From: a virus
Taxonomy: Duplodnaviria > Caudoviricetes
IMG/VR virus record: IMGVR_UViG_3300033143_002021
Location: 1 to 50,101 of that record
Length of the DNA: 50,101 nucleotides
Direction: 5' to 3' (one strand)
This document shows, in pieces, positions 4,411 through 27,268 of this stretch. The translations under genes and the position numbers were made by a program. Below the pieces are notes generated by a model. It made no database searches. It was not told where the DNA came from and saw only the letters and a program-made list of their open reading frames with translations. Position 1 is the first letter of the stretch. The number at the start of each line of letters is the position of its first letter.

Positions 4411-4411
4411 A

Positions 4412-5978: not shown

Positions 5979-6911
5979 ATGAGAATAGGATTTATAGGTA
6001 ACTTCATACCAGAATTTTCTACAGAGAATGACCGGAAATGGACTTTTCTTAGGTTAGGGCATAATGTAGTAACTTTTCAAGAGAACGAAACTTCAAAAGA
6101 CACTCTTCTTAAATGGATGCCAGACTTAGACTTACTTCTTTATAGTCACACCCACGACCCGAATTACAATATTTTAGGCTTAAAAGAAGTTTTTGAGACT
6201 TATAAGAAAAACAAGGTTCCTACCGTATCAGTTCATTTGGATAAGTGGGCTGGTTTAGAACGGGAAAAAGACGTGGGTAAAGAGGCTACTTGGTTTACAA
6301 AATATATCTTTATGGCGGATTGTTCTCCAGAAGCCGAAAAACTGTATAAAAAACATAATTTAAACTATTTTTACCTTCAACCAGGTGTCGTAGAACGGGA
6401 TTGTTATATGTCTGCTCCTGATCCAGTTCGATTCCCACATGAGATTGTATTTACTGGTTCTAAGGGCTATCACCAGGAATATCCCTTCAGACCACAACTT
6501 ATAGAGTTCCTTCAAGAGACTTACGAAGATCAATTCGGTCATTATGGAAATGATGGTATTGAGGTCGTTAGAGGACATGATTTAAACACTCTGTATGCCT
6601 CCAGTAAGATAGTAATTGGAGATTCGTGTTTTGGAACACAAGAAAACTATGTTTCTGATCGTTATTATGAGGTCCGTGGCAGGGGAGGTTTTCTTCTTAA
6701 TCCGATTGTTGGAGGAGTAGATACTATTGGTGTAGGGCATTACACCCATGATGATTTTGTCTCTTTAAAGAGCAGTATTGACTATTACCTGAAAAACAAC
6801 AACCTTCGGGAGATTAAGAGAGTAAACGGGTTTAACAAAGTTAGAGAAAGTGAAACTTATACCCACAGAGCAGTAGAGATGCTAGAAAGGATAAAAGCCT
6901 CAAAATCATGA
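5979..6911 (+). CDS. GT-B glycosyltransferase, CgeB/Glyco_trans_1_2-like
   Basis: IVFTGS..Y...R, DLNTLYASSKIVIG, SDRYYEVRGRGGFLL, HRA motifs. Confidence 0.8.
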   Translation: MRIGFIGNFIPEFSTENDRKWTFLRLGHNVVTFQENETSKDTLLKWMPDLDLLLYSHTHDPNYNILGLKEVFETYKKNKVPTVSVHLDKWAGLEREKDVGKEATWFTKYIFMADCSPEAEKLYKKHNLNYFYLQPGVVERDCYMSAPDPVRFPHEIVFTGSKGYHQEYPFRPQLIEFLQETYEDQFGHYGNDGIEVVRGHDLNTLYASSKIVIGDSCFGTQENYVSDRYYEVRGRGGFLLNPIVGGVDTIGVGHYTHDDFVSLKSSIDYYLKNNNLREIKRVNGFNKVRESETYTHRAVEMLERIKASKS

Positions 6912-7576
6912 TTAGAGAAGGAGTTAAAAGGCAAACTTGTGAAGCTGGTCATAAAAGTCATGAACGATTAGAAGTTGAGACAGATTTGGGTTTAATGACT
7001 GTTTTTAATTGGAATAAGTATAGAAGTCAACCTGGATTCTATTGTACTGGTCAAGATGATGTTTCTCGTACTTTATTCAATGAAGGAACTTGGGAAAAAG
7101 AACAAACCAAGTTAATAGGAAAAATCCTCAAAGAAGGAAACAAAAAGAACTTAGTTATTGATGTTGGTTCTCATGTTGGTTGGTATTCAAGGATGGCGAG
7201 TCAGTTTGGTTATGAGGTTGAAGCGTTTGAGGGTGATATAGAAAATGTTGAGGTTTTTAAGTTAAATGCTCCAAAGGCAAATATACACACAATATGGTTT
7301 GATAAAGATTTAGAGGGTGTTTTTGACTTAGACAAAGACGTTGAATTAATGAAAATTGATATTGAGGGTGCAGAGGAACACGTTATCAGGTATTTTGCAT
7401 CTGGTCTTAATAGAGTTAAACACTTAATAATGGAAATTAGCCCTGTGTTTAATGATTCTTACCCTGGATTGATACGAATTTTGCAAGATTTCGGATTTAA
7501 GGTTTTAGAGTTAGATGGTAAACCTTTTGACTTTAATTTTGATTTTAAACAGAGAGATTTGTATTTTAAAAGATGA
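6908..7576 (+). CDS. FkbM-family SAM methyltransferase
   Basis: VIDVGSHVGWYS, AFEG, MKIDIEGAE. Confidence 0.88.
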   Translation: MIREGVKRQTCEAGHKSHERLEVETDLGLMTVFNWNKYRSQPGFYCTGQDDVSRTLFNEGTWEKEQTKLIGKILKEGNKKNLVIDVGSHVGWYSRMASQFGYEVEAFEGDIENVEVFKLNAPKANIHTIWFDKDLEGVFDLDKDVELMKIDIEGAEEHVIRYFASGLNRVKHLIMEISPVFNDSYPGLIRILQDFGFKVLELDGKPFDFNFDFKQRDLYFKR

Positions 7577-8541
7577 AAAACACAATAATTAAGAGAGGAA
7601 ACCTTGAAATAGAGACTTTTAAAGAGAGTTCTGCTGTTCAAGTTATTTTAACTGTTAGTGGCAGTGTAATTATGCACGCCTTCTTGGAAGGTGATGCTTA
7701 TGAGTTGTGGGGAGACAAAATGGTTTATTATCCCTGGGGTATGCCTTATGAACAGAAGGTTGAACAAGTTTGTTTTAATATCCTTTTAAATCATCCTATC
7801 GCTTCTGGTTTATCCAAGGTTGAGGAAAGAATTAGTGCAGAAGATATCAGAGAAATGGTTACTGAGTTAAAAGATGACCTCTTAACTGTGCCTACTACTT
7901 ATATTATTGTGGCTGGTGGGAAATCTACTAGGTGGAAGAATTACAAGGGAATTGAAAAGCACATGATTGAGTTTGATGGTGAACCTATTATTGAAAGAAC
8001 TATTCGATTATTAAGAACTCATGGAGTTGAGGATATTGTTGTTGCATCAGATAATAGTAAGTACAAATTTAAGGGAGCAGGGTTATATAAACCCAAGTAT
8101 GACCCGAAGTATATTGATGCCAATAAATACATGGATTCCAAACCTATTTGGAACAAAGAAGGTAGAACTGTGATTCTTTTTGGGGATGTTTACTTCACTG
8201 AAAGTGCTATTTACAAGATAGTCAATGATTTTTCAAGAAGGTGGATGTTATATGGTCGTTCAGGACCAAGTAATATCGGAAAACCTTATTCTGAACCTTT
8301 TGGTATAGGTTTTTATCCCAACGAACATAAATTAATTGAGAGTGGTGCTAATAGGTCTGCCGATTTGTTTAGAAAAGAAATAGCTAATGGAACTTCACTT
8401 TGTCATTTGTATAGGTGTTTACTGGACTTCCCAGACCATTTAATCAATTCAGAACTCTTTGGTGAAAGAATGGTAATTATTGATGACTTAACAGACGATT
8501 TTGATATTCCAGAAGATTATATTAGATTTGTAAACAGATGA
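7573..8541 (+). CDS. Sugar/alcohol-phosphate nucleotidyltransferase (NTP transferase) with an unknown ~105-aa N-terminal domain
   Basis: IIVAGGKSTRW...KHMIEFDGEPIIERTIRLL; LFGDVYF; DDFDIPEDY. Confidence 0.8.
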   Translation: MKNTIIKRGNLEIETFKESSAVQVILTVSGSVIMHAFLEGDAYELWGDKMVYYPWGMPYEQKVEQVCFNILLNHPIASGLSKVEERISAEDIREMVTELKDDLLTVPTTYIIVAGGKSTRWKNYKGIEKHMIEFDGEPIIERTIRLLRTHGVEDIVVASDNSKYKFKGAGLYKPKYDPKYIDANKYMDSKPIWNKEGRTVILFGDVYFTESAIYKIVNDFSRRWMLYGRSGPSNIGKPYSEPFGIGFYPNEHKLIESGANRSADLFRKEIANGTSLCHLYRCLLDFPDHLINSELFGERMVIIDDLTDDFDIPEDYIRFVNR

Positions 8542-9224
8542 AAAACGTGAAAATTAATGGCAAGTGGGATATTTTGCTTCCTGAACACAGGGCAAACCGC
8601 AAAGAGTGGTTTTCCAAAAAGGGTTGGGAGAGAAAAAGACTGGATTCTATGTATGAAAAACTCACCAAAGATGATGTTTTGTATTATGTAGGAGTAGAGG
8701 AAGGGGAGATGCCAGCACTTTGTATGCTTTGGGGAGTTAAAAATGTGGTACTTTTTGAACCTAACAAACTCGTCTGGTCGAATGTAAGAGCCGTTTGGGA
8801 AGGAAATGACCTAGATGTACCTTTTTCCTTTGTTGGTTTTGCTAGTAACAAAGATACTAAGGGTGCAAGATTACTTGAGGGTTTTCCAGAATGTTCTAAT
8901 AAGGAAATTATTACAAATCATGGTTTTAAGGAATTGAAAGATCCTGGTGATATACCTCAAATCAGAATTGACACTGTGCAATCATTACATATCCCCCCGA
9001 CTGCTATTTCTTTGGATGTAGAAGGTTCTGAGTGGGAAGTATTAAAAGGTGCGGAACAGACTTTGAGAAAATATCATCCTAAGATTTGGCTTTCACTTCA
9101 TCCAGAGTTTCTCTTTGATCAATATGGGAAGTATTCTTACGAGGTCAGAAGGTGGATTCAAAAGATTGGTTACAAGGAAACTCTTTTGGATTATCAACAC
9201 GAAGCTCATTTTTTGTATGAATAG
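8538..9224 (+). CDS. FkbM-family methyltransferase
   Basis: YVGVEEGE, LFEPN, SLDVEGSEWEVLKGA. Confidence 0.85.
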   Translation: MKNVKINGKWDILLPEHRANRKEWFSKKGWERKRLDSMYEKLTKDDVLYYVGVEEGEMPALCMLWGVKNVVLFEPNKLVWSNVRAVWEGNDLDVPFSFVGFASNKDTKGARLLEGFPECSNKEIITNHGFKELKDPGDIPQIRIDTVQSLHIPPTAISLDVEGSEWEVLKGAEQTLRKYHPKIWLSLHPEFLFDQYGKYSYEVRRWIQKIGYKETLLDYQHEAHFLYE

Positions 9225-9759
9225 ACTAACAAAAGAAAAAAACTATTGGAACAAAGCCAGTAAAGATCCCAAAGTAGATATAAAGTATATTTCTGATATC
9301 GGCAAAGCACCCTTTTTAGACCTTCTTGGTAAGGAACTAAAAAAAGGCAAAACCCTTGAAATAGGTTGTGGAGTTGGTCGTTTAATGCAAGATGGTTATT
9401 GTGGGATAGATATTTCTGAAGGAATGTTGGAGATTGCTAAAAAGAGGAAGCCAAAGTGTCATTTTAAGTTGTCTGATGGTAGGAGTATCCCCTACAAAGA
9501 CGAAACCTTTGACAGTGTTTATTGTGTATTAGTTTTTCAACACATTCCTTTTGATGCAGTACAATTCTATATTGACGAAGCAAGCAGGGTTCTTAAAAAG
9601 GATGGTGTGTTTATTTTCCAGATGATACATGGTGACGAAGATGAACCTTTTTCTAAACATCACAGAGTCGGTAAACTGAATATCGCTAAATTCAGCAAAG
9701 ATCGTGCCTTACATGGACTTATTCACCCACAATGGACTTGGATTAAACTAACTAAATGA
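9217..9759 (+). CDS. Class I SAM-dependent methyltransferase
   Basis: LEIGCGVGRL, GIDISEGML, FDSVY..VFQH, RVLKKDG; ATG at 9217. Confidence 0.9.
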   Translation: MNRLTKEKNYWNKASKDPKVDIKYISDIGKAPFLDLLGKELKKGKTLEIGCGVGRLMQDGYCGIDISEGMLEIAKKRKPKCHFKLSDGRSIPYKDETFDSVYCVLVFQHIPFDAVQFYIDEASRVLKKDGVFIFQMIHGDEDEPFSKHHRVGKLNIAKFSKDRALHGLIHPQWTWIKLTK

Positions 9760-11285
9760 AAATAAACTATTTAACAGTAAAAGTAGGTGTTGCTCCAGAT
9801 TCCTATTGGGACCAGACTTTTATTAAAGATTTGCTTGAGGACTTACCAGAAGGCGATAGGAAGGTCTTTCTAGTCCCTGGTGCTTATCAGGGTGATGTAA
9901 TAGACAAAATTAACAAAGAACTTCAGAAACATGAAAAAGTAATGGTTTTCATAACCTCGGATGAGGAAGGTAAATTTGATTGCTCAAAACTAGAACATCC
10001 AGACATGATTCATTATTGTCAGTATGGGCATTGTGAGAACTTAATACCTCTTGGTTATACTCCACATACTAAAAAGGCTAAGTATGCTCCAAAAGTGTAT
10101 GACTGGTTTTTTGCAGGTCAGATTAATCATACCAGGCGTGAAAAGATGGGTAAGGTTTTAGAAAAACTATTGGCACGAAAAGCCACAGTTGGTTTATATG
10201 TTCCGACTGATGGATTTGCTAAGGGACTTTCTCCAGAAAGATATATTGAGGCTATGGCTGGTTCTAAGGTTGTTCTTTGTCCGTCTGGTAATGTTTCTCA
10301 TAGTAGTTTCCGTGTATATGAGGCTCTTGAGTGTGGAGCAGTACCTATTGTTGATGAGTTTAATGTTGCAGGTGAAACAGGATATTGGCAAAAGATGTTT
10401 TCTGATGCTCCATTTCCAATATTAACCTCTTATGACGAACTTCCCTATTTAATTGAAAAATACAAAGACAAAGGTCCCGAAGTTTATGCTTGGTGGATTT
10501 CCAAAAAACAAGAGATTAAAGAGAAACTTGCTATTCAATTAGGATGTCCGGTGGATGCTACAACTGCTGTAGTTGTTACTTCTCCAATTAAGTCTCACCC
10601 TGATACTGGAATGATGTGTGAGGCACTCAATAGTGTTAAACATCACCTCGATTGTAAGATAGTGATAGGGTTTGATGGGGTTAGAGATGAACAGAAAGAC
10701 TTTTCTGAAAGATATAGTGAGTATATAAATCGGATGTTGTGGATGTGTAACTTCAAATACTCAAAAACAGTTCCAGTTTTGTTTAAAAAACACAAACATC
10801 AGTCAGGAATGATGAAAAAGATAATGCCAATGATTAAAACTCCTCTTTTGTTGTTTGTTGAGCATGACACTCCTTTGGTTGTGGATGAACCGATAGACTT
10901 TCCATATTTACAGAGAACTTTACTTACAGGTCATTCCTTTCTTATAAGGTTTCATTTTGAGGCTAGTATTCCAAAAGAACATGAATATATGATAATAGGC
11001 AAGGTAGAAAACCGATTGTTAAAAACCTACCAGTGGTCACAAAGACCGCACTTGGCTAGAACAGACTTTTACACAGAAGTAATCAAGTTCTTTTCAGAGG
11101 ACAGTAATTGTTTCATAGAAGATTTGATTCATGGTAAAGTTATTGATGCCTGGATGGCTGATGAAATGAAAGGTTGGGATAAGTGGCGTATGCACATTTA
11201 TATCCCAGGAGAAAACATAAAGAGATCCTTAAACTTAGATGGGAGAGGCTCTGATTACAAATATGAAAAAGAACAAAAGTGGTAA
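9756..11285 (+). CDS. Bifunctional glycosyltransferase: exostosin/GT47-like N-terminus plus GT-A-like C-terminus
   Basis: FFAGQ...R, SKVVLCPSG....SFRVYEALECGAVPIV; C-terminal IGFDG and FVEHD. Confidence 0.72.
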   Translation: MKINYLTVKVGVAPDSYWDQTFIKDLLEDLPEGDRKVFLVPGAYQGDVIDKINKELQKHEKVMVFITSDEEGKFDCSKLEHPDMIHYCQYGHCENLIPLGYTPHTKKAKYAPKVYDWFFAGQINHTRREKMGKVLEKLLARKATVGLYVPTDGFAKGLSPERYIEAMAGSKVVLCPSGNVSHSSFRVYEALECGAVPIVDEFNVAGETGYWQKMFSDAPFPILTSYDELPYLIEKYKDKGPEVYAWWISKKQEIKEKLAIQLGCPVDATTAVVVTSPIKSHPDTGMMCEALNSVKHHLDCKIVIGFDGVRDEQKDFSERYSEYINRMLWMCNFKYSKTVPVLFKKHKHQSGMMKKIMPMIKTPLLLFVEHDTPLVVDEPIDFPYLQRTLLTGHSFLIRFHFEASIPKEHEYMIIGKVENRLLKTYQWSQRPHLARTDFYTEVIKFFSEDSNCFIEDLIHGKVIDAWMADEMKGWDKWRMHIYIPGENIKRSLNLDGRGSDYKYEKEQKW

Positions 11286-12330
11286 AATAGGTTTAATAGC
11301 TTTTGCTAATTCTTCTGGTCTTGGCGCTCAAACTAGGAGGTTGGCACAACTGATACAACCAGATAGGATTTTGGTTGTTAATTCCTCTGGGTTTTCCCAA
11401 AACAAGAAACAGAACTTTGATTGGTACAAGGATTTTGAGTTCTTTGTTTCTAACGGGTTTCCTTCAGATAAGGATGTTCTCGCTTTTATGCAGAACCTTA
11501 CACACATCTTTACTTGCGAGAATCCTTATAACTTCAACATGATTCACTGGGCTAGGCAAAAGGGAATTAAGACTTATTGTCAGTCTAACTATGAATTTTG
11601 TGAAAACCTGGGTAAACATTACCTTCCTGCTCCAGATGTATTCTTAATGCCTTCTTATTGGAAAATTAAAGAGATGGAAGAAAAGTTCGGTAAGGATTCT
11701 GTTGCTTATCTTCCCCCTCCAATAAACCCCGATGAGTTTGAGATTCCAAGGAAAATTAACATGAAAAGGAAAGGGAAGCCAAGATTCCTACATATTATTG
11801 GAACTTTGGTCACTGAGGACAGAAATGGAACCCTGGATTTACTAGAAGCTGTTAAATTGTCTAAAGAAGATTTTGAGTTGGTTATCCACACCCAACATCC
11901 ACTTCCGATGACTTACTTTTTAGATGACAAGAGAGTGAAATACAGAATAGAGGATTTTGTAAACAACTATGAGCTGTATAAGAATTTTGATGCTCTTATT
12001 TTACCCAGGAGGTTTGGTGGATTGTCTTTGACCACAAATGAAGCCCTGATGAGTGGCTTGCCGGTTTTTATGACTGATATCTCACCTAATAATAAGTTGC
12101 TTCCCAAAGACTGGCTTATTAGGTCGGAGAAGAAAGGTTCTTTCATGGCTAGAAGTAAAATTGACTTGTATTCCATTGATGTTAAAAGATTGGCAGAGAA
12201 AATTGACTGGCTGGCTTCTATTGGACCTTTAACTAAGTTGTTAAAAGAAAAGGCTTTCAAACTCGGCAAGAAGAACTTTAGTGGTGAGATATTAAGACCA
12301 AAATATGAAAAACTATTTAAACCTTTTTAA
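11263..12330 (+). CDS. GT4-family glycosyltransferase
   Basis: SGLGAQTRRL, RNGT, LPRRFGGLSLTTNEALMSGLPVFMTD. Confidence 0.85.
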   Translation: MKKNKSGKIGLIAFANSSGLGAQTRRLAQLIQPDRILVVNSSGFSQNKKQNFDWYKDFEFFVSNGFPSDKDVLAFMQNLTHIFTCENPYNFNMIHWARQKGIKTYCQSNYEFCENLGKHYLPAPDVFLMPSYWKIKEMEEKFGKDSVAYLPPPINPDEFEIPRKINMKRKGKPRFLHIIGTLVTEDRNGTLDLLEAVKLSKEDFELVIHTQHPLPMTYFLDDKRVKYRIEDFVNNYELYKNFDALILPRRFGGLSLTTNEALMSGLPVFMTDISPNNKLLPKDWLIRSEKKGSFMARSKIDLYSIDVKRLAEKIDWLASIGPLTKLLKEKAFKLGKKNFSGEILRPKYEKLFKPF

Positions 12331-12511
12331 CCATAGGAAGCCCACTGTGGGTTTCAAAAACTTTGTATTTAAGAGGCAAATCGCCTTTGTAGTAGTCATC
12401 TTTAATTTCTTTGCTAAAGTAGTAAGAAATAGCCTCAATTTTGTTTCTAGGAAGAATTACTTTTCTGGTGTGAAGATACCACTTCGTTCCATTTTTAGAA
12501 GAAAAAACCAT
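12317..12511 (-). CDS. Small conserved hypothetical protein (inserted moron)
   Basis: SKNGTKWYLH...YYFSKE...LPLKYKVFETHSGLPMVKK; own TGcTATATT promoter 6 nt upstream. Confidence 0.75.
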   Translation of the reverse strand: MVFSSKNGTKWYLHTRKVILPRNKIEAISYYFSKEIKDDYYKGDLPLKYKVFETHSGLPMVKKV

Positions 12512-12540
12512 ATTTAAAATATAGCACGCAATTAGAAATT

Positions 12541-14094
12541 ATGCAAAACCTGTCTGAAGCAGAAGTCAAAAGGGTTCAAGCTACCCTGGAGGGAATGAAG
12601 GAAAAGGCTTCTGAAGATCCCATCTATTTTATTGACACTTTTTGTTATACCTTTAATCCAAAACTTCCAAAAGGACAAAGTCCTCATTTAAGATTTAAAC
12701 TATTCCCCTTTCAAAAAAGACTTGTAAGAGACATTTTAAAAAGTATCAGAGATGGTGAGGATTTGTTTATTGAAAAGTCTAGGGAGGTTGGAGCAACCTA
12801 TACGATATTGGCTACCATTCTTTGGATGTGGAGATACGAACCAGGTTCTAACGTCTTAGTTGGTTCTCGTAAAGAGGATTATGTTGACAACAGGCGTGGT
12901 GGAACAACTGGAAACAAAGAAGAATCTTTGTTTGGAAAACTTGACTATATGCTTTCCAGGCTTCCTGATTTTATGCTTCCTAAAGGTTTTGACAGAAATA
13001 GGCATTTTACTTATATGTCTTTAATCAATCCTGAAAATGGGAATGTTGTTTCCGGTGAATCTGCTAACCAAAACTTCTCAAGAGGTTCTAGGCATAGAAT
13101 GATCTTTTTAGATGAGTTTGCCTTCTGGGACCATGGAATTGCAGTTTGGGGAGCAACTGCTGATACTACTAATTGTCGAATTATTGCCACAACTCCAGGG
13201 GACAGACCTTCTAAGGCTAAAAGACTCCGTTTTGGTAAAGATGGTGAGAAAATTAAAGTTGTAACTCTTACTTACAACCAAGACCCAAGAAAAACAAAAA
13301 AGTGGTTAGAAACTCAAAGAGACAGACGTTCAAGTGAGGACTTCAATCGTGAGATCATGATTAATTGGGAAACCTCTATTACAGGTAGGGTTTATCCTGA
13401 AATGGAGAGTGCCGCTTTTGGTGAGTTCCCATTCCTTGTAAACAAACAGCTTTATTGTAGTTGGGATTTTGGTTTGGATGGTACAGCCTTGATTTTCTGG
13501 CAACAAAACCCTGCTAATGGTAAATGGCGAATTGTTGACTGTTTTGAGTCACAAGACAAGGTTATTCAGTGGTATTACCCTCTTTTTGGAAAACCGATGG
13601 ATTCTAAGTTCCAATATACCGATGATGACATAAAGGCAGTAACAGATATCGCACAATACCCTCCGGCTATTCACTTTGGAGATCCTGATGTAAACAAAAG
13701 AAGTTACTTAGTAAAAGATACAACTACTAGACAGGAACTAGAAAAGGTTGGGGTTTTTGTCCAGTCAATTCCTAAAAATGACTTTACTACTCGCAGGGAG
13801 AAAACAAAGATTGCTTTGCAAAAAGGAATTGAGGTAGATATAAGTGCCAGAACAGAGTATTTAATGGAGTGTTTAAAGTCTGCTCGTTATCCTCAAAGAG
13901 AGGAAACCTCACAGTCTACTCAACCTGTTTCATTGCCAATTCATGATTGGACATCTCATTTTAGAACCTCTATGGAGTATTTTTTCACCAACATCGACAT
14001 TTGGAGTACAAAACCCAAAGATGCTCCTAAATGGGCAGACCAAACAAAAAGTTGGCTTACTAATAGAATGAGGATGAAATCAAGAAGGGGGTGA
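12541..14094 (+). CDS. terL: Terminase large subunit
   Basis: LFPFQ adenine motif, EKSREVGAT Walker A, IFLDEFAF Walker B, ATTP, RNase H-like SWDFGLD...HDWTSH. Confidence 0.92.
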   Translation: MQNLSEAEVKRVQATLEGMKEKASEDPIYFIDTFCYTFNPKLPKGQSPHLRFKLFPFQKRLVRDILKSIRDGEDLFIEKSREVGATYTILATILWMWRYEPGSNVLVGSRKEDYVDNRRGGTTGNKEESLFGKLDYMLSRLPDFMLPKGFDRNRHFTYMSLINPENGNVVSGESANQNFSRGSRHRMIFLDEFAFWDHGIAVWGATADTTNCRIIATTPGDRPSKAKRLRFGKDGEKIKVVTLTYNQDPRKTKKWLETQRDRRSSEDFNREIMINWETSITGRVYPEMESAAFGEFPFLVNKQLYCSWDFGLDGTALIFWQQNPANGKWRIVDCFESQDKVIQWYYPLFGKPMDSKFQYTDDDIKAVTDIAQYPPAIHFGDPDVNKRSYLVKDTTTRQELEKVGVFVQSIPKNDFTTRREKTKIALQKGIEVDISARTEYLMECLKSARYPQREETSQSTQPVSLPIHDWTSHFRTSMEYFFTNIDIWSTKPKDAPKWADQTKSWLTNRMRMKSRRG

Positions 14095-14099
14095 TATGA

Positions 14100-14252
14100 A
14101 TGTTTAATGAAATGCTAATAAGAGAGCAATTTCGTGAGTTAGTAATAAACACGAAAAATATTTTAACCTATATGCAGGAGTCAAAAGAAGAAACACAAAA
14201 GTTGAAAAAGGAAATCAAGTTACTTAAAGAAATGGTTAAAAAGAAGAAATGA
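14100..14252 (+). CDS. 50-aa coiled-coil protein
   Basis: Manual translation MFNEMLIREQF...LKEMVKKKK*; GGGGTGA RBS; ATGA overlap. Confidence 0.6.
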   Translation: MFNEMLIREQFRELVINTKNILTYMQESKEETQKLKKEIKLLKEMVKKKK

Positions 14253-14908
14253 AAGCACCTAAAATAGATTGTTCTGTAATAGTTACTTGTTATCAGAAAG
14301 AAGAATATCTCAATGAGTGTCTTGAGTCTGTTAAAAGACAAACTAGACAACCAAAAGAGACTATTCTGGTTCATGATGCTTGTGATAATCCAATGGCTCA
14401 TGCCATAGCAACAACCATTATTCTTCCTGAGAATGTTGGTGTTTGTAAGGCGAGGGATATTGGGTTTAATTACTCTACTGGAAGTTTGATTCTCTTTTTA
14501 GATGCAGATGACGTTCTATCTCCTGATTACCTGGAGAAAATGGCTCTGGTGATTGCTAAAGGAGCAGATGTCGCTTATCCAGACTTGTTTGTGTGGCAAG
14601 AGGGTAATTCCTACTTATCAGTTCCTCCTAACACTATGACTAAAAAATACATTACTAGAAAATCTAAAATGCCTATACCAGTGACTTCCATGATGAAAAG
14701 AGAAGTTTATGAAAAACTTGGTGGGTTTAGGGAAATGCCTGTTTTGGAAGATTTAGACTTCTTCATAAGAGCCATGTGTAAGAATTACACAATCAAAAAG
14801 GCTCAAACCCTTTTGTGGTACAGGAGATATCCAGGAACTAGAAATTCATTAAGCATTGAAGAAAGAAAGGGGGTGTTGGCTAAGATACTTGCCCAGATAA
14901 ATGCCTAG
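14249..14908 (+). CDS. GT2-family glycosyltransferase
   Basis: SVIVTCYQ..EYLNECLESV..QT, NVGVCKARD, FLDADD, EDLDF. Confidence 0.93.
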   Translation: MKAPKIDCSVIVTCYQKEEYLNECLESVKRQTRQPKETILVHDACDNPMAHAIATTIILPENVGVCKARDIGFNYSTGSLILFLDADDVLSPDYLEKMALVIAKGADVAYPDLFVWQEGNSYLSVPPNTMTKKYITRKSKMPIPVTSMMKREVYEKLGGFREMPVLEDLDFFIRAMCKNYTIKKAQTLLWYRRYPGTRNSLSIEERKGVLAKILAQINA

Positions 14909-15227
14909 ATTAGTTTTCATACCAAAGGCATATCCAATGTCGAGTTATGACCATGCAGACGGACACGCAGAGGAGTTTTCCAGTAACAAGTTTGAAGAAA
15001 GTATGTATTCTCGTATAAACACAGAAATGTTGGTTTTAGATTTATTGGTGAAGCTAAAAGATAGACACAAGATAGTCTTTACATATCTTTTATTAAAAGA
15101 TTCTGGTTATAAAATAACACATGGAGATTGTGCCAAAACAATGTCAATATCGAGACAAGCCTATATGAAATTGGTTAAAACAGTTAGAATAAAGGCGAAG
15201 AAAATACTACAAGGGAAGGGATTGTAG
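14901..15227 (+). CDS. Sigma70 region-4-like HTH protein, probable late-gene regulator
   Basis: LKDRHKIVF...THGDCAKTMSISRQAYMKLV..VRIKAKKIL resembles a sigma4 HTH; abuts the portal promoter. Confidence 0.62.
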   Translation: MPRLVFIPKAYPMSSYDHADGHAEEFSSNKFEESMYSRINTEMLVLDLLVKLKDRHKIVFTYLLLKDSGYKITHGDCAKTMSISRQAYMKLVKTVRIKAKKILQGKGL

Positions 15228-15239: not shown

Positions 15240-15243
15240 ATAT

Positions 15244-17223: not shown

Positions 17224-18183
17224 ATGTACGAAACGATTACAAAGCTAGCAAACGAATTTATTAAAAGTATCCAGAATACTGGTGTTTTTGTTGTCAAGTC
17301 GGCTAACAAAAAAGCTGATGAATTAAAGAAGATACTCTCCTCAAACACCTTCTCGGTTATGGTTAAGAATCCTCAGAAAAAGGTTGATGTCAAAGGAACT
17401 GTTGTTGTTGGTAATCAATCTAAGCTAGAAAAGAAAATAGACAAGCTCGAAAAGGCAATCTCTAAGATAAGTGATATTCTTCCCTCCTTAAAAGAAGTTG
17501 AAATTACTAATCATAAGAGTTTCCCCAAGAGTGTAAAGGTTTCTAATTTATCCGATAAGACAAGGGTTCAGAATCTTAATGTTGTTGTAGATGCTTTAGA
17601 TGAGGTTAAAAAGGTTGTCTCCAAGTTAAAACTTGACCCTCAAATTAAGGTTTCTGCTCCTAAAATTCCTGCTCCTGTTGTCAAGATAGCAAAACAACCT
17701 GCTCCTGTTGTAAAAATACAGGAAAAAGAGGTCGATTTGTCGGCATTAAATGATTTAACAGACTTTTGGCAATCCCTCACAAAGTCTGCTAAGAAGTCTA
17801 TCTCAGTAAGACTGTCCGATGGAAAGAAGTTTTATAAGGCTATGGATAAAATGATTGAGGTTGCCACAGCTAATAATTCAAGTCACTTCCGATACTATAC
17901 TGGTGGTGAAGCAAGACCTATCGTAAACAAGAATGACGAATTACAAGTAACAGTAAATGATACATGGGAAGTTAATGACACTCAGCGAGTTTCAAATGTT
18001 TTGACCTACTTTGGGGAAGAAAGTGTTGATGAGAAATGGAGAGTTAGGAAAGTGACTAAGTCGGGAACACTTACTGCTATAAGACACGCCACTATTAAGA
18101 ATAATTCTAGTATCGAGGGTTATGATGAGGCTTGGGTTGAAAGAACATCTTTAGAATATGGATTAGTAAGGGAGGCTTTGTAA
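17224..18183 (+). CDS. Hypothetical virion-associated protein (K/V/P-rich stalk)
   Basis: 319-aa ORF with PAPVVKI repeats; [12 protein letters not shown]. Confidence 0.7.
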
Positions 18184-18184
18184 A

Positions 18185-22336
<4,152 letters not shown>

Positions 22337-22337
22337 T

Positions 22338-22658
22338 ATGCCAGCACCAATAGCATTACAAAAAGTAAGCGTAGCACCTGATAAGTATTATTCCATTAAG
22401 GGTGGTATTAAAACCGAGATAACTGAAAAAGAATACAACTCTCCAATAGTAGGAAGCGAGATACGATCTAAAGGTATAGCTTTCGACACTCCAACGGGGA
22501 AACTTTCTGATGGTCAACACGCTACTCAAGAAAATGGTTTCCACTGGGTGAAAATAGCAGGTTATGAAGTTATAAAAATAGACCCAAGCATGGTGGCGAA
22601 AAGTAAAACAACACCAGCAGGTTTAAATAAAATATTATTAGATTCGGAGGTTAAATAA
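22338..22658 (+). CDS. Hypothetical protein in the fibre operon
   Basis: ORF tightly coupled on both sides. Confidence 0.7.
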   Translation: MPAPIALQKVSVAPDKYYSIKGGIKTEITEKEYNSPIVGSEIRSKGIAFDTPTGKLSDGQHATQENGFHWVKIAGYEVIKIDPSMVAKSKTTPAGLNKILLDSEVK

Positions 22659-24265
22659 TGGCAATTTCCCTGGGTGCCACAATTAGTAATGCAGACGATA
22701 CCACTACAGCAACACTAAGTGCTAATCATACGACTGACGCAAATACAAAAGCATTAGTAGTTGTTGTTAAAGGATATGATTCATCTGATGCTGACTCGGC
22801 AATTAAGAGTTTAACTTTTAATGCTGAACCCCTTATTGAAGCCGAATATTATAGGAACACAGGAGATGGTGATGATGCTTTTGTTGCGGTATATTATCAA
22901 TTAAATCCAGCCATTACGTTATACGGTGTTGTTCTTACAATGGAAGGGTCTTGTACTGACCTTTCTTGGGATGCGGTCAATTTAGTAACTGATGCTTCTG
23001 CAGATACGATAATTTTAGACAGTACAAATGCTGGTAGTACAGGAGCAACAACTACTCATACTGTAACAGTTGACCCAGCCGAAACTGACTCAATATGTAT
23101 AGGTGGGATTGTCAACAAAGATTCCTCAGTTAATGACCTTGCGGTTACCACAGGAAATGAACTTGCAGGAAGTGAAGTTGATTTTGGACAACAGACATCT
23201 GGGTCTGCTTGGGTTCTTGAACAAACTGCTCCAACTGGTGAAGCTACAATAGTTTGGGAAAAAACAACATCAGATGACAGTTGGGCTTGTTCTGCTACTT
23301 TCTATGAACAGTTTTATCCTACTGTGGCTTTAAATACTCCTGGTGATACAGCAGAAATATCAGATACTACTCCAGATTTACTATTTACAGGAACGGATGA
23401 TGATGATGATGAAATTGAATATCAACTACAGGTAGATACTGTTGATACTTTTGATAGTGGTGGCTATAGCTATGGTAGTAACACAACAATAGACTCTTAT
23501 AGTGAATCAAATCAAAATGATTATAAAAATGGTGGAAAAGATTACCTAGATTATGTTGGACAAGCCATTCCAGCCATAAGTGGTCTTTATAGGCTCAATG
23601 ATGTCAAATTTTATTTAAATAGTTTTTATGATACTTCTGCTACGGGAAATATCTATGCCAAAATATATGCGGTTACGGGAACTCCTGGAACTGATGGTAA
23701 AGCAACAGGGTCTGTTTTGGCAACTTCGGATGCCATAGATGCAAATACACTTACAGATTCGTATACATTGATTACGTTTACTTTTTCTGGGGCTCAACAA
23801 ATTAATATCGGAGATAATATTGCTTATGCAATAATGTTAGATTTTTCTGGTGTTACTGGTGATTCCACGCTTGGTCCAATTCTGGTTGGTACAGACTCGT
23901 CTTCTCCTGAACATAGTGGAAATTTGTTCGATGGAATACAAATTAGTAATTTGTACCCAGATGCAGGAGAGGATGCTTGTTTTTATATTAATGGTGAACC
24001 AATGACTAGTGTCCCCCTCCTCGACAAACTCTCAGAAACCCCAGATGACACCTTTTCAGGTACAGGTGATCCCCATCCTTGGGCTTCAGACAACCAAATA
24101 ACCTATACAGTTCAAGGAGCAGATGAATTAACCGCACCAGATACTTATTACTGGAGAGTAAGAGGAAAAGACCCTGGTGGAAGTGATACTTTTGGAGATT
24201 GGAGTGATACATATAGTTTTGATTTGACGACTGGTGTAACTAGAAGGGTATTTATTACAACTTAA
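22658..24265 (+). CDS. Acidic T/D-rich beta-sandwich virion surface protein with Fn3/Ig-like elements
   Basis: DTTPDLLFTGTD...YQLQVDT..TFDS; TYYWRVRGKD...GDWS. Confidence 0.65.
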   Translation: MAISLGATISNADDTTTATLSANHTTDANTKALVVVVKGYDSSDADSAIKSLTFNAEPLIEAEYYRNTGDGDDAFVAVYYQLNPAITLYGVVLTMEGSCTDLSWDAVNLVTDASADTIILDSTNAGSTGATTTHTVTVDPAETDSICIGGIVNKDSSVNDLAVTTGNELAGSEVDFGQQTSGSAWVLEQTAPTGEATIVWEKTTSDDSWACSATFYEQFYPTVALNTPGDTAEISDTTPDLLFTGTDDDDDEIEYQLQVDTVDTFDSGGYSYGSNTTIDSYSESNQNDYKNGGKDYLDYVGQAIPAISGLYRLNDVKFYLNSFYDTSATGNIYAKIYAVTGTPGTDGKATGSVLATSDAIDANTLTDSYTLITFTFSGAQQINIGDNIAYAIMLDFSGVTGDSTLGPILVGTDSSSPEHSGNLFDGIQISNLYPDAGEDACFYINGEPMTSVPLLDKLSETPDDTFSGTGDPHPWASDNQITYTVQGADELTAPDTYYWRVRGKDPGGSDTFGDWSDTYSFDLTTGVTRRVFITT

Positions 24266-24267
24266 TT

Positions 24268-25023
24268 ATGGCAAACTTTAGTATAGAAGATTTTGAAGAT
24301 AATGGTTACAACGATTTAACCAATTCTGGGGTAAATGCTGTAACAGATACTCCCTTTGCTGGTAGTGATTATGCAGCAGATTTTGATGGTAGTAGTTATT
24401 TAAAAATAGATGATGGTGACCAGACAGGATTAGATTTAGGAGCGACATTTACCTTAGAAGCTTGGGTAAGTCCTGCAACATTACCTGTAGATACTACTTA
24501 CTTTACAATTATTGCTAAAGAGAATCCGAATGTTACAGCCCAAAGGGGTTTGCATTGGACAATATTTAATCGTGGTGCTGGAGTGATAGTAGAAGCCTTG
24601 ATATCAGATGGTGACAATCATTATGATTATTACCAATGGGATGTAGATGCAATTCTATCTGAAGATACCTGGACACATCTAGCTCTTACTTGTGAAACTT
24701 CTCAGCCATCTGCTACTACATTTGAGTTGTTTTCAGATGGTTCAAGTTTAGGAAATGGGTCAGCACTTATTTCTAATAATGTTTCATTAAACAATAACAC
24801 TGAGGCATTTATAATTGGTGCTAGGAATAGTAACTCTGGGATTACAGATTTTTATGATGGGATTATGGATGGAGTTAGGGTTTGGAATGACATTAGAACA
24901 GAATCAGAAATAGACGACAACAAAGGAATCAAACTTACAGGCAGTGAAGATGGTTTGGTTGCGTATTATCCATTTGAATCAGAAACTTATACTTCAATTC
25001 TTCCTGCATTTAAAAGATCATAA
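24268..25023 (+). CDS. LamG/concanavalin A-like lectin domain protein
   Basis: FDGSSY, FTLEAWV, WTHLALT, IGA, YDGIMDGVRVWN..RTESEI, LVAYYPF. Confidence 0.88.
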   Translation: MANFSIEDFEDNGYNDLTNSGVNAVTDTPFAGSDYAADFDGSSYLKIDDGDQTGLDLGATFTLEAWVSPATLPVDTTYFTIIAKENPNVTAQRGLHWTIFNRGAGVIVEALISDGDNHYDYYQWDVDAILSEDTWTHLALTCETSQPSATTFELFSDGSSLGNGSALISNNVSLNNNTEAFIIGARNSNSGITDFYDGIMDGVRVWNDIRTESEIDDNKGIKLTGSEDGLVAYYPFESETYTSILPAFKRS

Positions 25024-25052
25024 TTGACACATATCTAACGATTTGCTATATT
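25024..25052 (+). promoter_or_regulatory. Sigma70 promoter TTGACA-N17-TATATT (glycan cluster II), leaderless
   Basis: ATG 5 nt downstream at 25058; near-identical to 44637-44665. Confidence 0.8.
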
Positions 25053-25057
25053 GATAT

Positions 25058-25639
25058 ATGACCTGGAAAAAGGCTCAGGCTTGGGAAGAAAATTGGTGGG
25101 GAAATTGTGTAAATACCTTCAACGAAGAAAAGAAACAACTGATATATGCTCAAAGGATGGGATTGAAAACCTCACCCAATCCTAAAACTCCATACAGATT
25201 TGATTTAAAAGGTAAGTCTATTTTAGATATTGGTTCGGGACCATGTTCTCTTTTGCTTAAGTGTGAGAATTTCAAACAAAGTTATGCTATTGATCCTTTA
25301 ATGAATAAATATCCTGAATGGGTTAGAGAAAGATATAATAGTATTGGGCTTGTTTGTAATGATGAGAAAGGTGAGGATGTGGATGATTACCCTAAAGTTG
25401 ATGAAGTTTGGATTTATAATGTTTTAGAACACGTTGATAGTCCTAAAAAGGTTATTGAAAATGCCAAAAAGGTTGGAAAGATAATTCGTCTTTTTGAGTG
25501 GATAAATACCAAAAAGAACCCAGGACACCCCCATTCTTTAAAAGAAAAGAAGTTAGACAAGTGGTTGGGTGGAACAGGTAAGACAGAAGATATGAGTTCA
25601 AATGGTTTGTTTGGAACTGCCTACTATGGAATTTTCTAA
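25058..25639 (+). CDS. Class I SAM-dependent methyltransferase
   Basis: ILDIGSGP, AIDPL, YNVLEHV. Confidence 0.87.
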   Translation: MTWKKAQAWEENWWGNCVNTFNEEKKQLIYAQRMGLKTSPNPKTPYRFDLKGKSILDIGSGPCSLLLKCENFKQSYAIDPLMNKYPEWVRERYNSIGLVCNDEKGEDVDDYPKVDEVWIYNVLEHVDSPKKVIENAKKVGKIIRLFEWINTKKNPGHPHSLKEKKLDKWLGGTGKTEDMSSNGLFGTAYYGIF

Positions 25640-25640
25640 A

Positions 25641-26129
25641 ATGACAAACACAAGTCCAAAGACTTTTGTCGTATTAGGTTCTAAACGTGGTGGAACTTCT
25701 TTTGTGGCTCAAGCATTAGGAAGTGCAGGAGTAAAGTTTGACGTTTGTGGTAATGGACACAATGAAGATTTAGACTTTGTTCAGTTAAATGACAAGATTT
25801 TAAAGTTTGCTGGTGGGGATTGGAACAATATCCCAAGTGATGAAAAAATAGCCCATGCAGTTGATCATTATAAACACCAAGTAAAGACCTTGTTGAAACG
25901 AAAGAAAATCCAAATGTGGGGTTGGAAAGACCCACGACAGTCTGCAACCATTAAACACTTTTTACCTTACTTGGAAGATGATGTTTACTTGGTTTGTGTA
26001 TTCAGGAAAAAGGAACTTGTTGCTCAAAGTATCAAAACAATATGGGGAAAACCTTTAGCGAAAGGTCGAAAGATTGTAGACAGTTACTATGAGAGGCTAA
26101 TTGATGCCATAAAGGAGTTTACAAAATGA
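25641..26129 (+). CDS. PAPS-dependent sulfotransferase
   Basis: VVLGSKRGGTS (5'-PSB loop), WGWKDPR, VCVFR....VAQS. Confidence 0.82.
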   Translation: MTNTSPKTFVVLGSKRGGTSFVAQALGSAGVKFDVCGNGHNEDLDFVQLNDKILKFAGGDWNNIPSDEKIAHAVDHYKHQVKTLLKRKKIQMWGWKDPRQSATIKHFLPYLEDDVYLVCVFRKKELVAQSIKTIWGKPLAKGRKIVDSYYERLIDAIKEFTK

Positions 26130-27268
26130 GATTTCACTATATTGCCATGCCTCACCTTCCGGTAACTAAGGAATATATTTCTTGTGCTTTTACACAAAAG
26201 ATTCACAAGCTAACACGAATGTTGCTGGATAAAGGTCACAAGGTCTTTTTGTATGGGGTTGACCATACAGACATTAAACACAAGAACCTGGAATTTATAC
26301 CTACAGTAAATTTGGAGGACATAAGAAAAGAGTGGGGGGATGGTGATAACAGGTTTGAATTAGGATATGACTGGAAGAATGGAGATTTTAGACACGATTT
26401 GAATAAAAAGAAAACCGAGTGTCATTTTAAATTCAGACAACGGGCAGTTAAGGAAATCAGGAAACGAAAGAAAGATGATGATTTCCTTCTTTTAAGTCAG
26501 GGATATTACCATAAAAATATAGCTGATGATGTTAAGTTGTTTTTGACTTGTGAACCTGGTATTGGATATCGTGGAAGTTATGCAAAATTTAGAGCCTTTG
26601 AGAGTGCCTATATTCAAAACTTCACTTATGGCTCAGAACACCCAAGACAGTCAATCAACGGCAACTATTACGATAGGGTGATTCCAAACTACTTTGACTT
26701 AGATGATTTCAAGTTTAGCAACAAGCCCGACAATTACCTCTTTTATATAGGAAGAATGATTAAAAGGAAGGGTTTAGCGACAGCCTTAATGGTTGCTCAA
26801 CATCTTGATAAGAAACTCATATTAGCTGGTCAAGATTCTGGTGATTGGAGAAAAATTGGAGTTGAATACAAGAAAGCTGAATTTATCGGAACTGTGGGAG
26901 TTGATGAGCGGAAGAAACTCTTGTCTAAAGCCATGGTTACGTTTCTACCGACACTTTACCTTGAACCCTTTGGTGGGACATCAGTTGAGTCCATGCTAAG
27001 CGGTACTCCTGCTATAACAACAAACTTTGGTGTATTTCCTGAAACTATTAGAAATGGAGTTGGTGGATATAGGTGTGATACTTTAAACGACTTTGTTGTG
27101 AATACCAGGAAAGCCTTTCAACTAGACAGAAAGAAAGTGAGAAGATATGCTGTTAGTAGATACTCAATGGAAGCGGTGAATGAGTTGTACGAAAAGTGGT
27201 GGAAGGACTTATACCAAGTATATTTAAGTACAAAAAGTGATGTTAAAGGTTGGCATTTGATAAAATGA
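26126..27268 (+). CDS. GT4-family glycosyltransferase
   Basis: VIPNYFD, YIGRMIKRKG, PTLYLEPFGGTSVESMLSGTPAITTNFG. Confidence 0.9.
   Translation: MRFHYIAMPHLPVTKEYISCAFTQKIHKLTRMLLDKGHKVFLYGVDHTDIKHKNLEFIPTVNLEDIRKEWGDGDNRFELGYDWKNGDFRHDLNKKKTECHFKFRQRAVKEIRKRKKDDDFLLLSQGYYHKNIADDVKLFLTCEPGIGYRGSYAKFRAFESAYIQNFTYGSEHPRQSINGNYYDRVIPNYFDLDDFKFSNKPDNYLFYIGRMIKRKGLATALMVAQHLDKKLILAGQDSGDWRKIGVEYKKAEFIGTVGVDERKKLLSKAMVTFLPTLYLEPFGGTSVESMLSGTPAITTNFGVFPETIRNGVGGYRCDTLNDFVVNTRKAFQLDRKKVRRYAVSRYSMEAVNELYEKWWKDLYQVYLSTKSDVKGWHLIK

Follow-up and report, generated by a model that had tools for sequence, protein, structure and literature searches.

The viral genome considered here (IMG/VR record IMGVR_UViG_3300033143_002021; 50,101 bp, hereafter the window, meaning the whole stretch of DNA that was analyzed) carries eleven genes for glycan-related enzymes, and these fall into three separable units. 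Foremost among them is a fiber module (module B, 18185-27268), in which the gene for a threonine-rich, proline-free collagen-like protein is followed by genes for accessory fiber proteins, a class I methyltransferase (MTb), a small sulfotransferase-fold protein (p175) and a GT4-type glycosyltransferase (GT4b). The second unit is a series of enzyme genes between the two terminase genes (block A, 5979-12330), and the third is a lone GT2-family glycosyltransferase gene (core GT2, 14249-14908) that precedes the portal gene. The explanation that best accounts for these units as a whole, and that we believe with somewhat more confidence than doubt, is that the phage may O-glycosylate its own fiber in the cytoplasm. 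A preliminary description of this DNA had placed eleven glycan enzymes between terS and the scaffold gene and had read them as one toolkit for coating the fibers of the phage. The enzymes are indeed all there, ten of them exceeding Pfam curated cut-offs and the eleventh (25602-26129) tentatively recognized by the fold of its model. Their genes all lie on the + strand, overlap or abut, and total about 9.4 kb, or 19% of the genome. The proposal that the phage coats its own fibers is consistent with the apparent solubility of the enzymes and with the linkage of three of them to collagen genes, but the set as a whole does not appear to be directed at the collagen.

The collagen-like fiber (18185..22336, + strand, 1383 aa) matches Pfam Collagen at 258 bits and carries two CBM_5_12 stretches (35.2 bits), together with an internal and a C-terminal globular domain. 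As had been described, it is a G-X-T protein: among 278 G-X-Y triplets in runs of at least four, 146 (53%) have Thr at Y. Proline is absent, the X position is mostly Asp, Glu or Val, and acidic residues outnumber basic ones by 266 to 35. When the internal globular domain was searched by sequence in the PDB, no chain matched it, whether C1q-like or other. The N-terminal 70 residues (18185-18400) form a CBM5/12-like domain with the consensus GGLNxRGEY...GDVV...GSSYVA...TGN.PT..TYW, which is conserved in six collagens of the clade to which the window belongs. It is also a common phage fiber domain, with at least 473 confirmed matches, and sits N-terminally or internally in fibers of many kinds.

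The enzymes of module B are statistically linked to such collagens. Our comparison sample comprises about 250 fetched loci (designated by L or G numbers); most of the relatives are contig fragments, and open reading frames (ORFs) were called mechanically. A scan with GT4b yielded 57 loci, 42 of them at 40% identity or more, and the GT4b frame was called in 39. An MTb homolog lies within three genes of GT4b in 37 of these 39 loci. A collagen-like gene (at least 20 triplets, within the 8-kb flanks) is present in 29 of the 42 loci, corresponding to 23 of 31 backgrounds when loci are grouped by shared non-module proteins, such that fewer than three other proteins are common between backgrounds. 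As a control, none of 24 loci of other phages found via an unrelated GT2 has such a gene. Inside the clade, the MTb-GT4b pair was seen only 3′ of fiber genes. The fiber protein is a collagen in four cases (the window, G007, L076 and G006), and in the cut contig L126 it is Thr/Ser-rich. The full order MTb-p175-GT4b recurs 3′ of collagen genes in L131 (519 aa, cut by the contig end) and L132 (1498 aa). The fraction of Thr at Y has a median of 0.45 across the 35 distinct collagens located close to the module, 32 of which reach at least 0.30. Collagens that have a readable downstream region with no enzyme (those of L071 and L072 and the tail-region collagen of G008) show 0.00-0.16 Thr at Y.

Because the GT4b scan is blind to Thr-rich collagens that lack a glycosyltransferase, we also ran the test in reverse, from the fiber side. 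This sample consisted of 80 of the at least 473 matches to the N-terminal domain, representing 66 distinct proteins, 37 of which have at least 4 kb of readable downstream sequence. A Thr-rich collagen was defined as one having at least 40 triplets and at least 0.35 Thr at Y, and a glycosyltransferase was sought within six genes downstream. A homolog of GT4b, or of a GT2 enzyme with TPR repeats (GT2+TPR), lies 3′ of all four Thr-rich collagens and of none of the 33 other fibers (Fisher p = 1.5e-5). Three collagen-like fibers in this test with 0.04-0.33 Thr at Y have no linked glycosyltransferase.

The GT2+TPR enzyme belongs to an alternative set found in the relative G008, where a Thr-rich collagen is followed by this enzyme, a PIG-L-like protein, a DUF6625 protein, an epimerase and an O-methyltransferase. 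By homology, L201 also has a GT2+TPR enzyme 3′ of a Thr-rich collagen. The G008 enzyme (L022:2194-3657) has 607 homologs, many on phage-sized contigs of 36-60 kb. Because it is fused to the same kind of protein as its G008 neighbor, a PIG-L-type deacetylase, in 5 of the 120 matches listed, the pairing suggests transfer of an N-acetyl sugar that would then be de-N-acetylated.

Co-occurrence of G-X-T collagens with the glycosyltransferases, which the preliminary description had offered as a check, is thus strong for MTb, p175 and GT4b but fails for the seven enzymes of block A and for core GT2. Two slots vary around a fixed core in the clade: slot A lies between terS and terL, and slot B extends from the portal gene (plus the gene for a 319-aa protein) to two genes that precede the scaffold gene. 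By our count, made by eye from gene maps of records in which both slots are readable, a collagen is present in five of 11 enzyme-rich records (the window, G007, L076, G003 and G008) and absent from the other six (G002, G004, L034, L078/79, L080/81 and L074/75). It is present in three of four enzyme-poor records (G012/13, where it is short, L073 and L071/72) and absent from L069. In G012, core GT2 is the sole glycan enzyme among the proteins scanned, yet short collagen-like proteins are present. These proportions argue that the slot A enzymes and core GT2 are not tied to the collagen, and they rule out service of the collagen by the whole eleven-enzyme set. The notion of one toolkit therefore fails in both directions: slot A enzymes and core GT2 are found in the seven collagen-less records, and collagen-bearing relatives can lack the enzymes. 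Independence of the glycosyltransferases from the collagen, which had been named as an observation that would count against a glycan coat on the fibers, is seen for the slot A enzymes and core GT2 only.

Among the enzymes of module B, GT4b (26126..27268, +) is assigned most readily (Glycos_transf_1, PF00534, 61 bits versus a cut-off of 26.4), and its closest solved relatives include tetrahydrobiopterin glucosyltransferases. MTb (25058..25639, +) is a weak match to Methyltransf_11 (PF08241, 23.5 versus 21.2 bits). The assignment of p175 (25602..26129, +; its Atlas record begins at residue 9) comes from its fold. A fold predicted from the single sequence is poor (pLDDT 56.9), and the Foldseek list obtained from it is uninformative. 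The protein has 35 unnamed homologs, none of which has a precomputed Pfam domain, and a model built with 34 of them in the alignment reaches a pLDDT of 94. When this model was compared with 48,161 chains by VIA-align, the top match was the tyrosylprotein sulfotransferase TPST1 (Z 10.2, root-mean-square deviation 3.0, 136 residues aligned), followed by a tick TPST (9.9), TPST2 (9.1) and an olefin-synthase sulfotransferase (8.4). The top four matches are therefore sulfotransferases, three of them tyrosylprotein sulfotransferases, and the best kinase match has a Z of 8.1. Language-model neighbors of p175 fall in Sulfotransfer_3 clusters (score 0.94-0.95), and a PDB profile search with the family gave nothing useful. 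The family conserves the stretches KRGGTS and KDPRQ, which resemble the two motifs that bind PAPS (3′-phosphoadenosine 5′-phosphosulfate). The sulfotransferase named in the preliminary description thus finds tentative support in the fold, but its sulfated glycan less so, as the best matches are protein sulfotransferases and none is glycan-directed.

From these genes we infer how module B might work, including its acceptor, its chemistry, its timing and the place of the fiber on the particle. GT4b would most likely glycosylate the fiber in the cytoplasm from host nucleotide sugars, with Thr at Y of the G-X-T triplets offering obvious glycan sites. MTb would methylate, and so cap, the sugars added by GT4b. 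Perhaps p175 sulfates either the glycan or a protein; the enzymes that it most resembles in fold use acidic Tyr peptides as substrates, and the proteins of the fiber cassette are strongly acidic. Modification would occur during late gene expression, and the finished glycoprotein fiber would then join the virion. The supply of sugar donors by the host, suggested earlier, fits the window, in which we likewise find no SDR epimerase or dehydratase. It fits the clade less well, because relatives carry epimerases or dehydratases, a cytidylyltransferase-like protein and a pyruvyl transferase. Block A might build or extend a methylated oligosaccharide on an acceptor other than the collagen specifically, and this acceptor is probably another virion protein. 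Core GT2 would serve a target present in every member of the clade. For both units we envision a cytoplasmic acceptor that is not the collagen specifically, with another virion protein as the most economical guess.

Since cultured Synechococcus phages carry the module, laboratory tests of the hypothesis are feasible. Full-length homologs of GT4b (33-35% identical) occur in 54 GenBank phage records, 51 of which are Synechococcus myophages, and homologs of MTb (41.6% identical) occur in 45, the one in ACG-2014f being gp017. The gene order in ACG-2014f_Syn7803C7 is baseplate hub, hypothetical protein, collagen, 140-aa protein, MTb homolog, glycosyltransferase, 2-oxoglutarate (2OG)-Fe(II) oxygenase and tail fiber. 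Its collagen triple helix repeat protein has 929 aa and 132 triplets with 45% Thr at Y. In S-CAM7, two collagens lie directly 5′ of the GT4b homolog, with 216 triplets and 34% Thr and with 50 triplets and 52% Thr, respectively. The cyanomyophage module sits in the baseplate/tail-fiber region, distant from the head genes. The 2OG-Fe(II) oxygenase gene directly follows the collagen-linked glycosyltransferase gene in ACG-2014f and lies one gene further in S-CAM7 (11413-12006 of NC_047712.1, our L243, and 10978-11574 of NC_031927.1, our L242). Enzymes of this class include the collagen prolyl hydroxylases; the cyanomyophage collagens have proline, whereas that of the window has none.

Several observations weigh against glycosylation of the fiber by module B. 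The fiber-side test has only four positives, one of which is a clade relative of the window, and its glycosyltransferases were recognized by homology to 30 reference enzymes, such that other glycosyltransferase families beside other fibers would be missed. No collagen of at least 20 triplets is visible in 13 of the 42 GT4b loci; in seven of these the readable upstream sequence falls short of 3.5 kb, but at least L110, L139, L142 and L144 have 4 kb or more. The linkage could also reflect joint transfer as one cassette with no pairing of enzyme and substrate. The sulfotransferase call for p175 lacks support from hidden Markov models (HMMs), with no Pfam match up to E = 1 and no NCBIfam match, and a Foldseek search with the good model returned nothing at E ≤ 0.001, kinases and sulfotransferases being mixed in its list. 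Block A and core GT2 occur without a collagen or Thr/Ser-rich cassette (L069 and L080/81), and in G015 the portal gene adjoins the scaffold-side genes. Furthermore, the family of a glycosyltransferase does not disclose its acceptor, and the closest solved relatives of core GT2 include protein-glycan and polysaccharide enzymes alike. Finally, the accessible portions of papers on marine myophages regard fiber-adjacent glycosyltransferases as modifiers of the host O-chain (PMC7029224) or of the host cell wall or DNA (PMC12801897).

That printed view corresponds to the alternative that survives best, namely that the enzymes act at the cytoplasmic face on precursors of envelope glycopolymers such as O-antigen, teichoic acid or capsule. 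An altered surface of the infected cell might, for example, exclude other phages or keep progeny off debris, and glycosyltransferases would then lie near fibers because both occupy hypervariable host-interaction islands. Soluble glycosyltransferases can use lipid-linked precursors, as does the prophage-encoded teichoic-acid glycosyltransferase TarP. The independence of block A and core GT2 from the collagen is in keeping with this alternative, as are the polysaccharide-type enzymes of relatives (pyruvyl transferase and cytidylyltransferase-like protein). However, the Thr-rich specificity of the linkage (4/4 versus 0/33, with Thr-poor collagens lacking enzymes) would go unexplained, as would the TPR-bearing glycosyltransferase that follows the G008 collagen. 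In addition, none of the enzymes contains a segment hydrophobic enough to suggest a membrane helix (the maximum, 1.66 in the nucleotidyltransferase, is at the threshold of 1.6), and Pfam scans of the window proteins revealed no flippase, polymerase or priming glycosyltransferase. Nor did general Pfam scans, which covered ORFs of 80 aa or more, reveal an integrase, and long-term conversion of a lysogen is therefore unlikely. Lysogenic conversion of the Gtr serotype-conversion kind was rejected for want of an integrase and membrane parts. Host-surface modification is most plausible for block A, but as an account of the whole we consider it unlikely.

Another alternative, which we regard as quite improbable, is that all of the enzymes, including those of module B, act on the capsid or on some other core protein of the virion and that the collagen is neighboring cargo. 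This would agree with the location of core GT2 between terL and the portal gene throughout the clade, whatever the fibers, and with the position of block A ahead of probable packaging genes in other backgrounds too. It also has a precedent in mycobacteriophages, whose glycans are found on capsid and tail-tube C-termini according to the available sections of PMC12619734. Yet the MTb-GT4b pair accompanies collagen genes in 23 of 31 backgrounds and, in the cyanomyophages, is located with the baseplate and tail fibers far from the head genes. The major capsid protein (MCP), moreover, has a near-constant length of 382-390 aa in relatives with and without the enzymes, and so no variable acceptor tail is visible on it.

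It is also conceivable, though we think very doubtful, that the fiber-linked enzymes do not glycosylate protein. MTb would in that case methylate the fiber itself, whereas the role of GT4b would be either to produce a small glycoconjugate or to assist assembly without catalysis. In favor of this idea are the small-molecule enzymes (the tetrahydrobiopterin glucosyltransferases) among the solved relatives of GT4b, the weakness of the class I methyltransferase match of MTb, and host-dependent methylation of a phage tail protein reported in the accessible text of PMC13445384. The tie to Thr-rich collagens and the GT2+TPR alternative in G008 and L201 point instead to protein-directed sugar transfer. 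Last, glycan building on modified bases of phage DNA, for which multi-glycosyltransferase DNA glycosylation in phages is a precedent (Pyle et al. 2024, as cited in the available part of PMC12619734), was rejected as having hardly any probability, since the complete genome has no match to a thymidylate-synthase-fold hydroxymethylase (PF00303) at E up to 1, Pfam scans of the window turned up no DNA polymerase, and the FkbM methyltransferases, pyruvyl transferase and epimerases suit glycan building rather than base modification.

Glycosylation of the fiber by module B can be compared with several known systems. In combining a G-X-T-rich collagen region with a glycosyltransferase gene that adjoins the collagen gene, the window resembles Bacillus anthracis BclA and Clostridioides difficile BclA3. 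The C. difficile SgtA enzyme, which has a GT-A domain with TPR repeats and whose gene adjoins bclA3, modifies Thr residues of the BclA3 GPT collagen region with O-GlcNAc (PMC7157674). SgtA is matched in this respect by the GT2+TPR enzyme 3′ of the Thr-rich collagen in G008 (and in L201 by homology), whereas the fiber-linked enzyme of the window is a GT4 with a GT-B fold. Unlike BclA-type proteins, the collagen of the window is viral rather than part of a spore layer and is known from genes alone. It has mostly Asp, Glu or Val where the GPT repeats have proline, and its much greater length is broken up by globular and CBM5/12-like parts. In spore formers, glycosylation of the surface proteins takes place within the mother cell. 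The spore crust of Bacillus subtilis offers another likeness, by Pfam family, in the CgeB-type GT-B enzymes of the window and L078 (Glyco_trans_1_2, PF13524, the family of B. subtilis CgeB). CgeB is a putative O-glycosyltransferase for Thr112 of the crust protein CgeA, and further glycosyltransferases are thought to extend the chain (PMC13577073, available sections). Unlike CgeB with CgeA, the CgeB-like enzyme of the phage sits in block A and is not tied to the collagen.

Among viruses, Mimivirus and its relatives glycosylate their own surface fibrils by means of lineage-specific gene clusters, and they encode collagen-like proteins as well. These giant viruses of eukaryotes, however, have genomes of hundreds of kilobases and encode complete nucleotide-sugar pathways, whereas the window has 50 kb and no epimerase or dehydratase. 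Mycobacteriophages are similar to the window in that phage glycosyltransferases and methyltransferases are encoded in or beside the operon for virion structural proteins, and glycans are attached to the structural proteins of the phage itself in the cytoplasm (PMC12619734 and PMC11256854, accessible portions). Their acceptors in those texts are capsid or tail-tube C-termini, whereas the linked partner in the window is a collagen fiber. Their hosts are Actinobacteria, and the window has far more enzymes (11, including the sulfotransferase-fold protein). Marine T4-like myophages likewise have glycosyltransferases among tail-fiber genes, including genes for collagen-repeat proteins (PMC7029224, PMC1079782), and the available passages of the papers concerned interpret the enzymes as modifiers of the host O-chain, cell wall or DNA. 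Those passages do not tie a glycosyltransferase-methyltransferase pair to Thr-rich collagens.

It is tempting to speculate further that these genes represent a mobile, self-glycosylating collagen-fiber module that is widespread from 50-kb podophage-like viruses to 200-kb cyanomyophages. In this module, a GT4 and a methyltransferase would accompany a Thr-rich collagen; a sulfotransferase-fold enzyme may join them, or a GT-A+TPR set may stand in their place. Sugars on Thr at Y might take the place of hydroxyproline in stabilizing proline-free triple helices, much as glycosylated Thr at Y stabilizes the collagen helix in the cuticle collagen of vent worms. The result might be a methylated, perhaps sulfated, glycan nap that, in the clade, would be varied by an O-antigen-like swapping of the second enzyme block. 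Marine-phage glycosyltransferases that are now read as modifiers of host surfaces or DNA might then be in part virion-directed. We advance these parts together as a single tentative proposal whose chance of being right in its entirety we judge to be a little short of even. Our literature searches found no paper that describes this SU10-like clade, and none in which a methyltransferase-GT4 pair is linked to phage collagens rich in Thr. To our knowledge, some actinobacteriophages are the only phages whose own enzymes have been shown to glycosylate the virion. Glycosyltransferase genes in environmental phages are usually read as modifiers of the host or of DNA, and the linkage offers a concrete substrate hypothesis for them. 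If the proposal is true, the annotation of a large class of phage auxiliary genes would change, as would the view of how bacterial-type collagens without proline or hydroxyproline are stabilized. Phage adsorption, stability and recognition would also come to depend in part on a swappable glycan layer.

Block A begins with the CgeB-like glycosyltransferase (5979..6911, +; Glyco_trans_1_2, PF13524, 37.9 versus 25 bits), which is also the first gene of the block where it recurs in other phages. It is followed by FkbM methyltransferase 1 (6908..7576, +; PF05050, 26.7 versus 22.7 bits; TIGR01444, 42.1 bits), which has no homolog among the 18 loci of our portal scan and a 30%-identical homolog in L080/L081. 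Next is a MobA-like nucleotidyltransferase of the NTP_transf_3 family with an N-terminal extension (7573..8541, +; PF12804, 37.6 versus 27 bits). Its match is limited to residues 111-164 and the first approximately 50 profile positions, and no homolog is present in the 18 portal-scan loci. FkbM methyltransferase 2 (8538..9224, +; PF05050, 36.3 versus 22.7 bits; TIGR01444, 40.3 bits) is kept in the block of L004, L034, L059, L076 and L249-L254. The subsequent class I S-adenosylmethionine-dependent methyltransferase (9115..9759, +; Methyltransf_11, PF08241, 68.3 bits) probably starts at an ATG near 9217, judging from its translation.

The two-domain glycosyltransferase (9756..11285, +) had been called a GT47/GT-A fusion. 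Its N-terminal half is RXYLT1_C/exostosin-like (PF24785, 41.1 versus 27 bits) and its C-terminal half is GT-A-like, with structural matches to GT2-family models at TM scores of 0.61-0.67, but it falls short of the GT47/exostosin model (PF03016, 22.2 versus 33.4 bits). The two-domain architecture thus stands, but membership in GT47 is not established. The RXYLT1_C-like half may work like the C-terminal half of a GT-B enzyme. PDB sequence and profile searches gave nothing useful for either the two-domain or the CgeB-like glycosyltransferase. The block closes with the GT4-type glycosyltransferase GT4a (11239..12330, +; Glyco_trans_1_4, PF13692, 34 versus 27 bits), which is also its last gene in relatives and in more distant phages.

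Comparison of these genes defines a five-gene core of CgeB-like glycosyltransferase, FkbM, class I methyltransferase, two-domain glycosyltransferase and GT4, to which the window adds the second FkbM and the nucleotidyltransferase. Several clade members carry this series in slot A, in some cases without the methyltransferase, and the same block occurs in more distant phages ahead of different packaging-sized genes. Other contents of slot A include an epimerase or dehydratase (G007 and L080), a pyruvyl transferase (G009), a double GT2 with a TOD1/MUCI70-like protein (G008) and extra GT2s (L074). L078 encodes a protein with DUF3880 and Glyco_trans_1_2 domains.

Core GT2 (14249..14908, +; Glycos_transf_2, PF00535, 89.3 versus 23.3 bits) lies between terL and the portal gene. 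Whether or not they encode a collagen, 17 of the 18 relatives defined by their portal have a homolog of it, and the 18th contig begins about 200 bases before the portal match and leaves no room for the gene. Residues D43, D85, D87-D88 and E167-D168 do not vary among 11 sequences of the clade, those from D85 onward in keeping with the DxD metal/donor motif and the catalytic acidic residues expected of the family. Its constant companion is a 108-aa protein (14901..15227, +) that has homologs in 18 of 18 relatives and no family match and that, by eye, reads as a helix-turn-helix protein. The order terL, GT2, 108-aa protein, portal is fixed across the clade. In L069, which has the barest layout (no slot-A block and no fiber cassette), a cytidylyltransferase-like gene (9573-10007; CTP_transf_like, 67.9 bits) is located just 5′ of core GT2. 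A scan with a GT2 alignment, from which 80 loci were kept, many on contigs already found, also returned another phage lineage (L082, L084, L093, L095 and L097) in which a GT2 of 25-35% identity is followed by ORFs of about 75, 160, 396-453 and 580 aa. These look like small genes, terL and portal; a terL profile matched one locus (E 6e-7), and Pfam Terminase_6N matched none of the four records searched.

Slot B is empty in G015, L069 and L080/81 and otherwise encodes Thr/Ser-rich proteins or collagens, with or without enzymes. In the window it is preceded by the gene for a conserved 319-aa protein (17224..18183, +), which lies 3′ of the portal gene, has homologs in most relatives and has no family or PDB match. 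The N-terminus of the collagen co-varies with the preceding gene, one type following the 319-aa protein and another following a 118/119-aa protein (L009:12036-12395; L072:13106-13462). The product of the gene 5′ of the collagen may therefore be a fiber anchor or chaperone. After the collagen come a 106-aa protein placed in the fiber cassette by position alone (22338..22658, +; no match in family searches), a 535-aa acidic protein (22658..24265, +) and a LamG/concanavalin-like protein (24268..25023, +; PF13385, 70.9 bits). The latter two agree with the Thr/Asp-rich protein and LamG lectin described earlier. The 535-aa protein has 81 acidic and 18 basic residues, with partial homologs in the same slot of L078/79, L126 and L143. 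The LamG protein also matches PHROG virion structural proteins and was the only one of 10 unassigned proteins with a match in PHROGs. In L110, one of the loci that has GT4b and no collagen, the MTb homolog is part of a 987-aa ORF directly 5′ of the GT4b homolog, and this ORF may be a methyltransferase fused to another fiber-type protein.

The source of the window is an uncultured podophage-like virus with SU10-type head genes, and the record is complete, with direct terminal repeats (exact repeat 114 bp). Models of the SU10 (Kuravirus-type) head match the portal (15244..17217, +; PF23899, 105 bits versus a cut-off of 30) and the MCP (29109..30260, +; PF17236, 95.2 versus 24 bits), and the adaptor model PF24175 scores 24.6 bits, slightly short of its cut-off of 27. 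With terL (12541..14094, +; PF03237, 36.7 bits), these confirm the landmarks first proposed. The small terminase gene terS (4725..5156, +) is probable, with a GP3_package match (E 2e-6, 28.4 bits) just below the 29.4 cut-off, and its homologs stand ahead of the enzyme block in relatives. The scaffold gene (28054..29007, +) is assigned by position; its acidic product has no family match, and the gene is kept 5′ of the MCP gene. Two small conserved head-module genes (27250..27967, +; 137 and 105 aa) mark the end of the variable slot, and their homologs lie directly 5′ of the scaffold gene in relatives. Remaining genes encode a DnaB-like helicase, RecA, NinG, a second helicase, YopX, an ArdC-N domain, a CHAP protein and an SLT transglycosylase, and the peptidoglycan-directed domains point to a bacterium as host. 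The window has no tRNA genes. Promoter-like sites (43 versus 40.0 ± 6.7 in shuffles) are not enriched, and terminator-like sites are below chance, with none on the + strand at 4000-19000.

A nucleotide search of the terL-portal region against 50,697 phage records gave no match, and the closest cultured phages have at most 25% identity in the MCP and 34% in terL; there is accordingly no close cultured phage. The clade was sampled by a portal scan, whose yield was 18 viral loci with 55-77% identity plus a 48-kb contig from a metagenome-assembled genome (MAG). That contig (L034, 48,387 bp, portal 54% identical) has a CgeB-like/FkbM/two-domain glycosyltransferase/GT4 block followed by terL, GT2 and portal and belongs to a MAG labeled Candidatus Heimdallarchaeota. 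Because the clade encodes CHAP, SLT and Amidase_3 domains, this placement looks like a binning artifact rather than a sign of an archaeal host. Two relatives are nearly complete, G008 (97% complete) and G012 (93% complete). The G008 collagen gene is split by the linear form of the record, with 406 aa encoded at its end (L024) and 324 aa at its start (L022), which makes the contig a circularly permuted version of a complete genome.

Signs of mobile elements are present in the head genes of some relatives (L016:1165-3747; L080:8041-10065; L003:7994-8623 and 10134-10697). One relative has a terL product of 860 aa of which just 323 residues align, suggesting an insertion or intein, and another has a portal encoded by two ORFs. 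HNH endonuclease genes are also present 3′ of the portal gene. Lastly, a degenerate glycosyltransferase had been suggested at 41939, but the 167-aa ORF there (41939-42442, - strand) has no family or PDB match. It has homologs in G008, G012, G004 and L069, and those in the first three lie among or beside homologs of replication genes.

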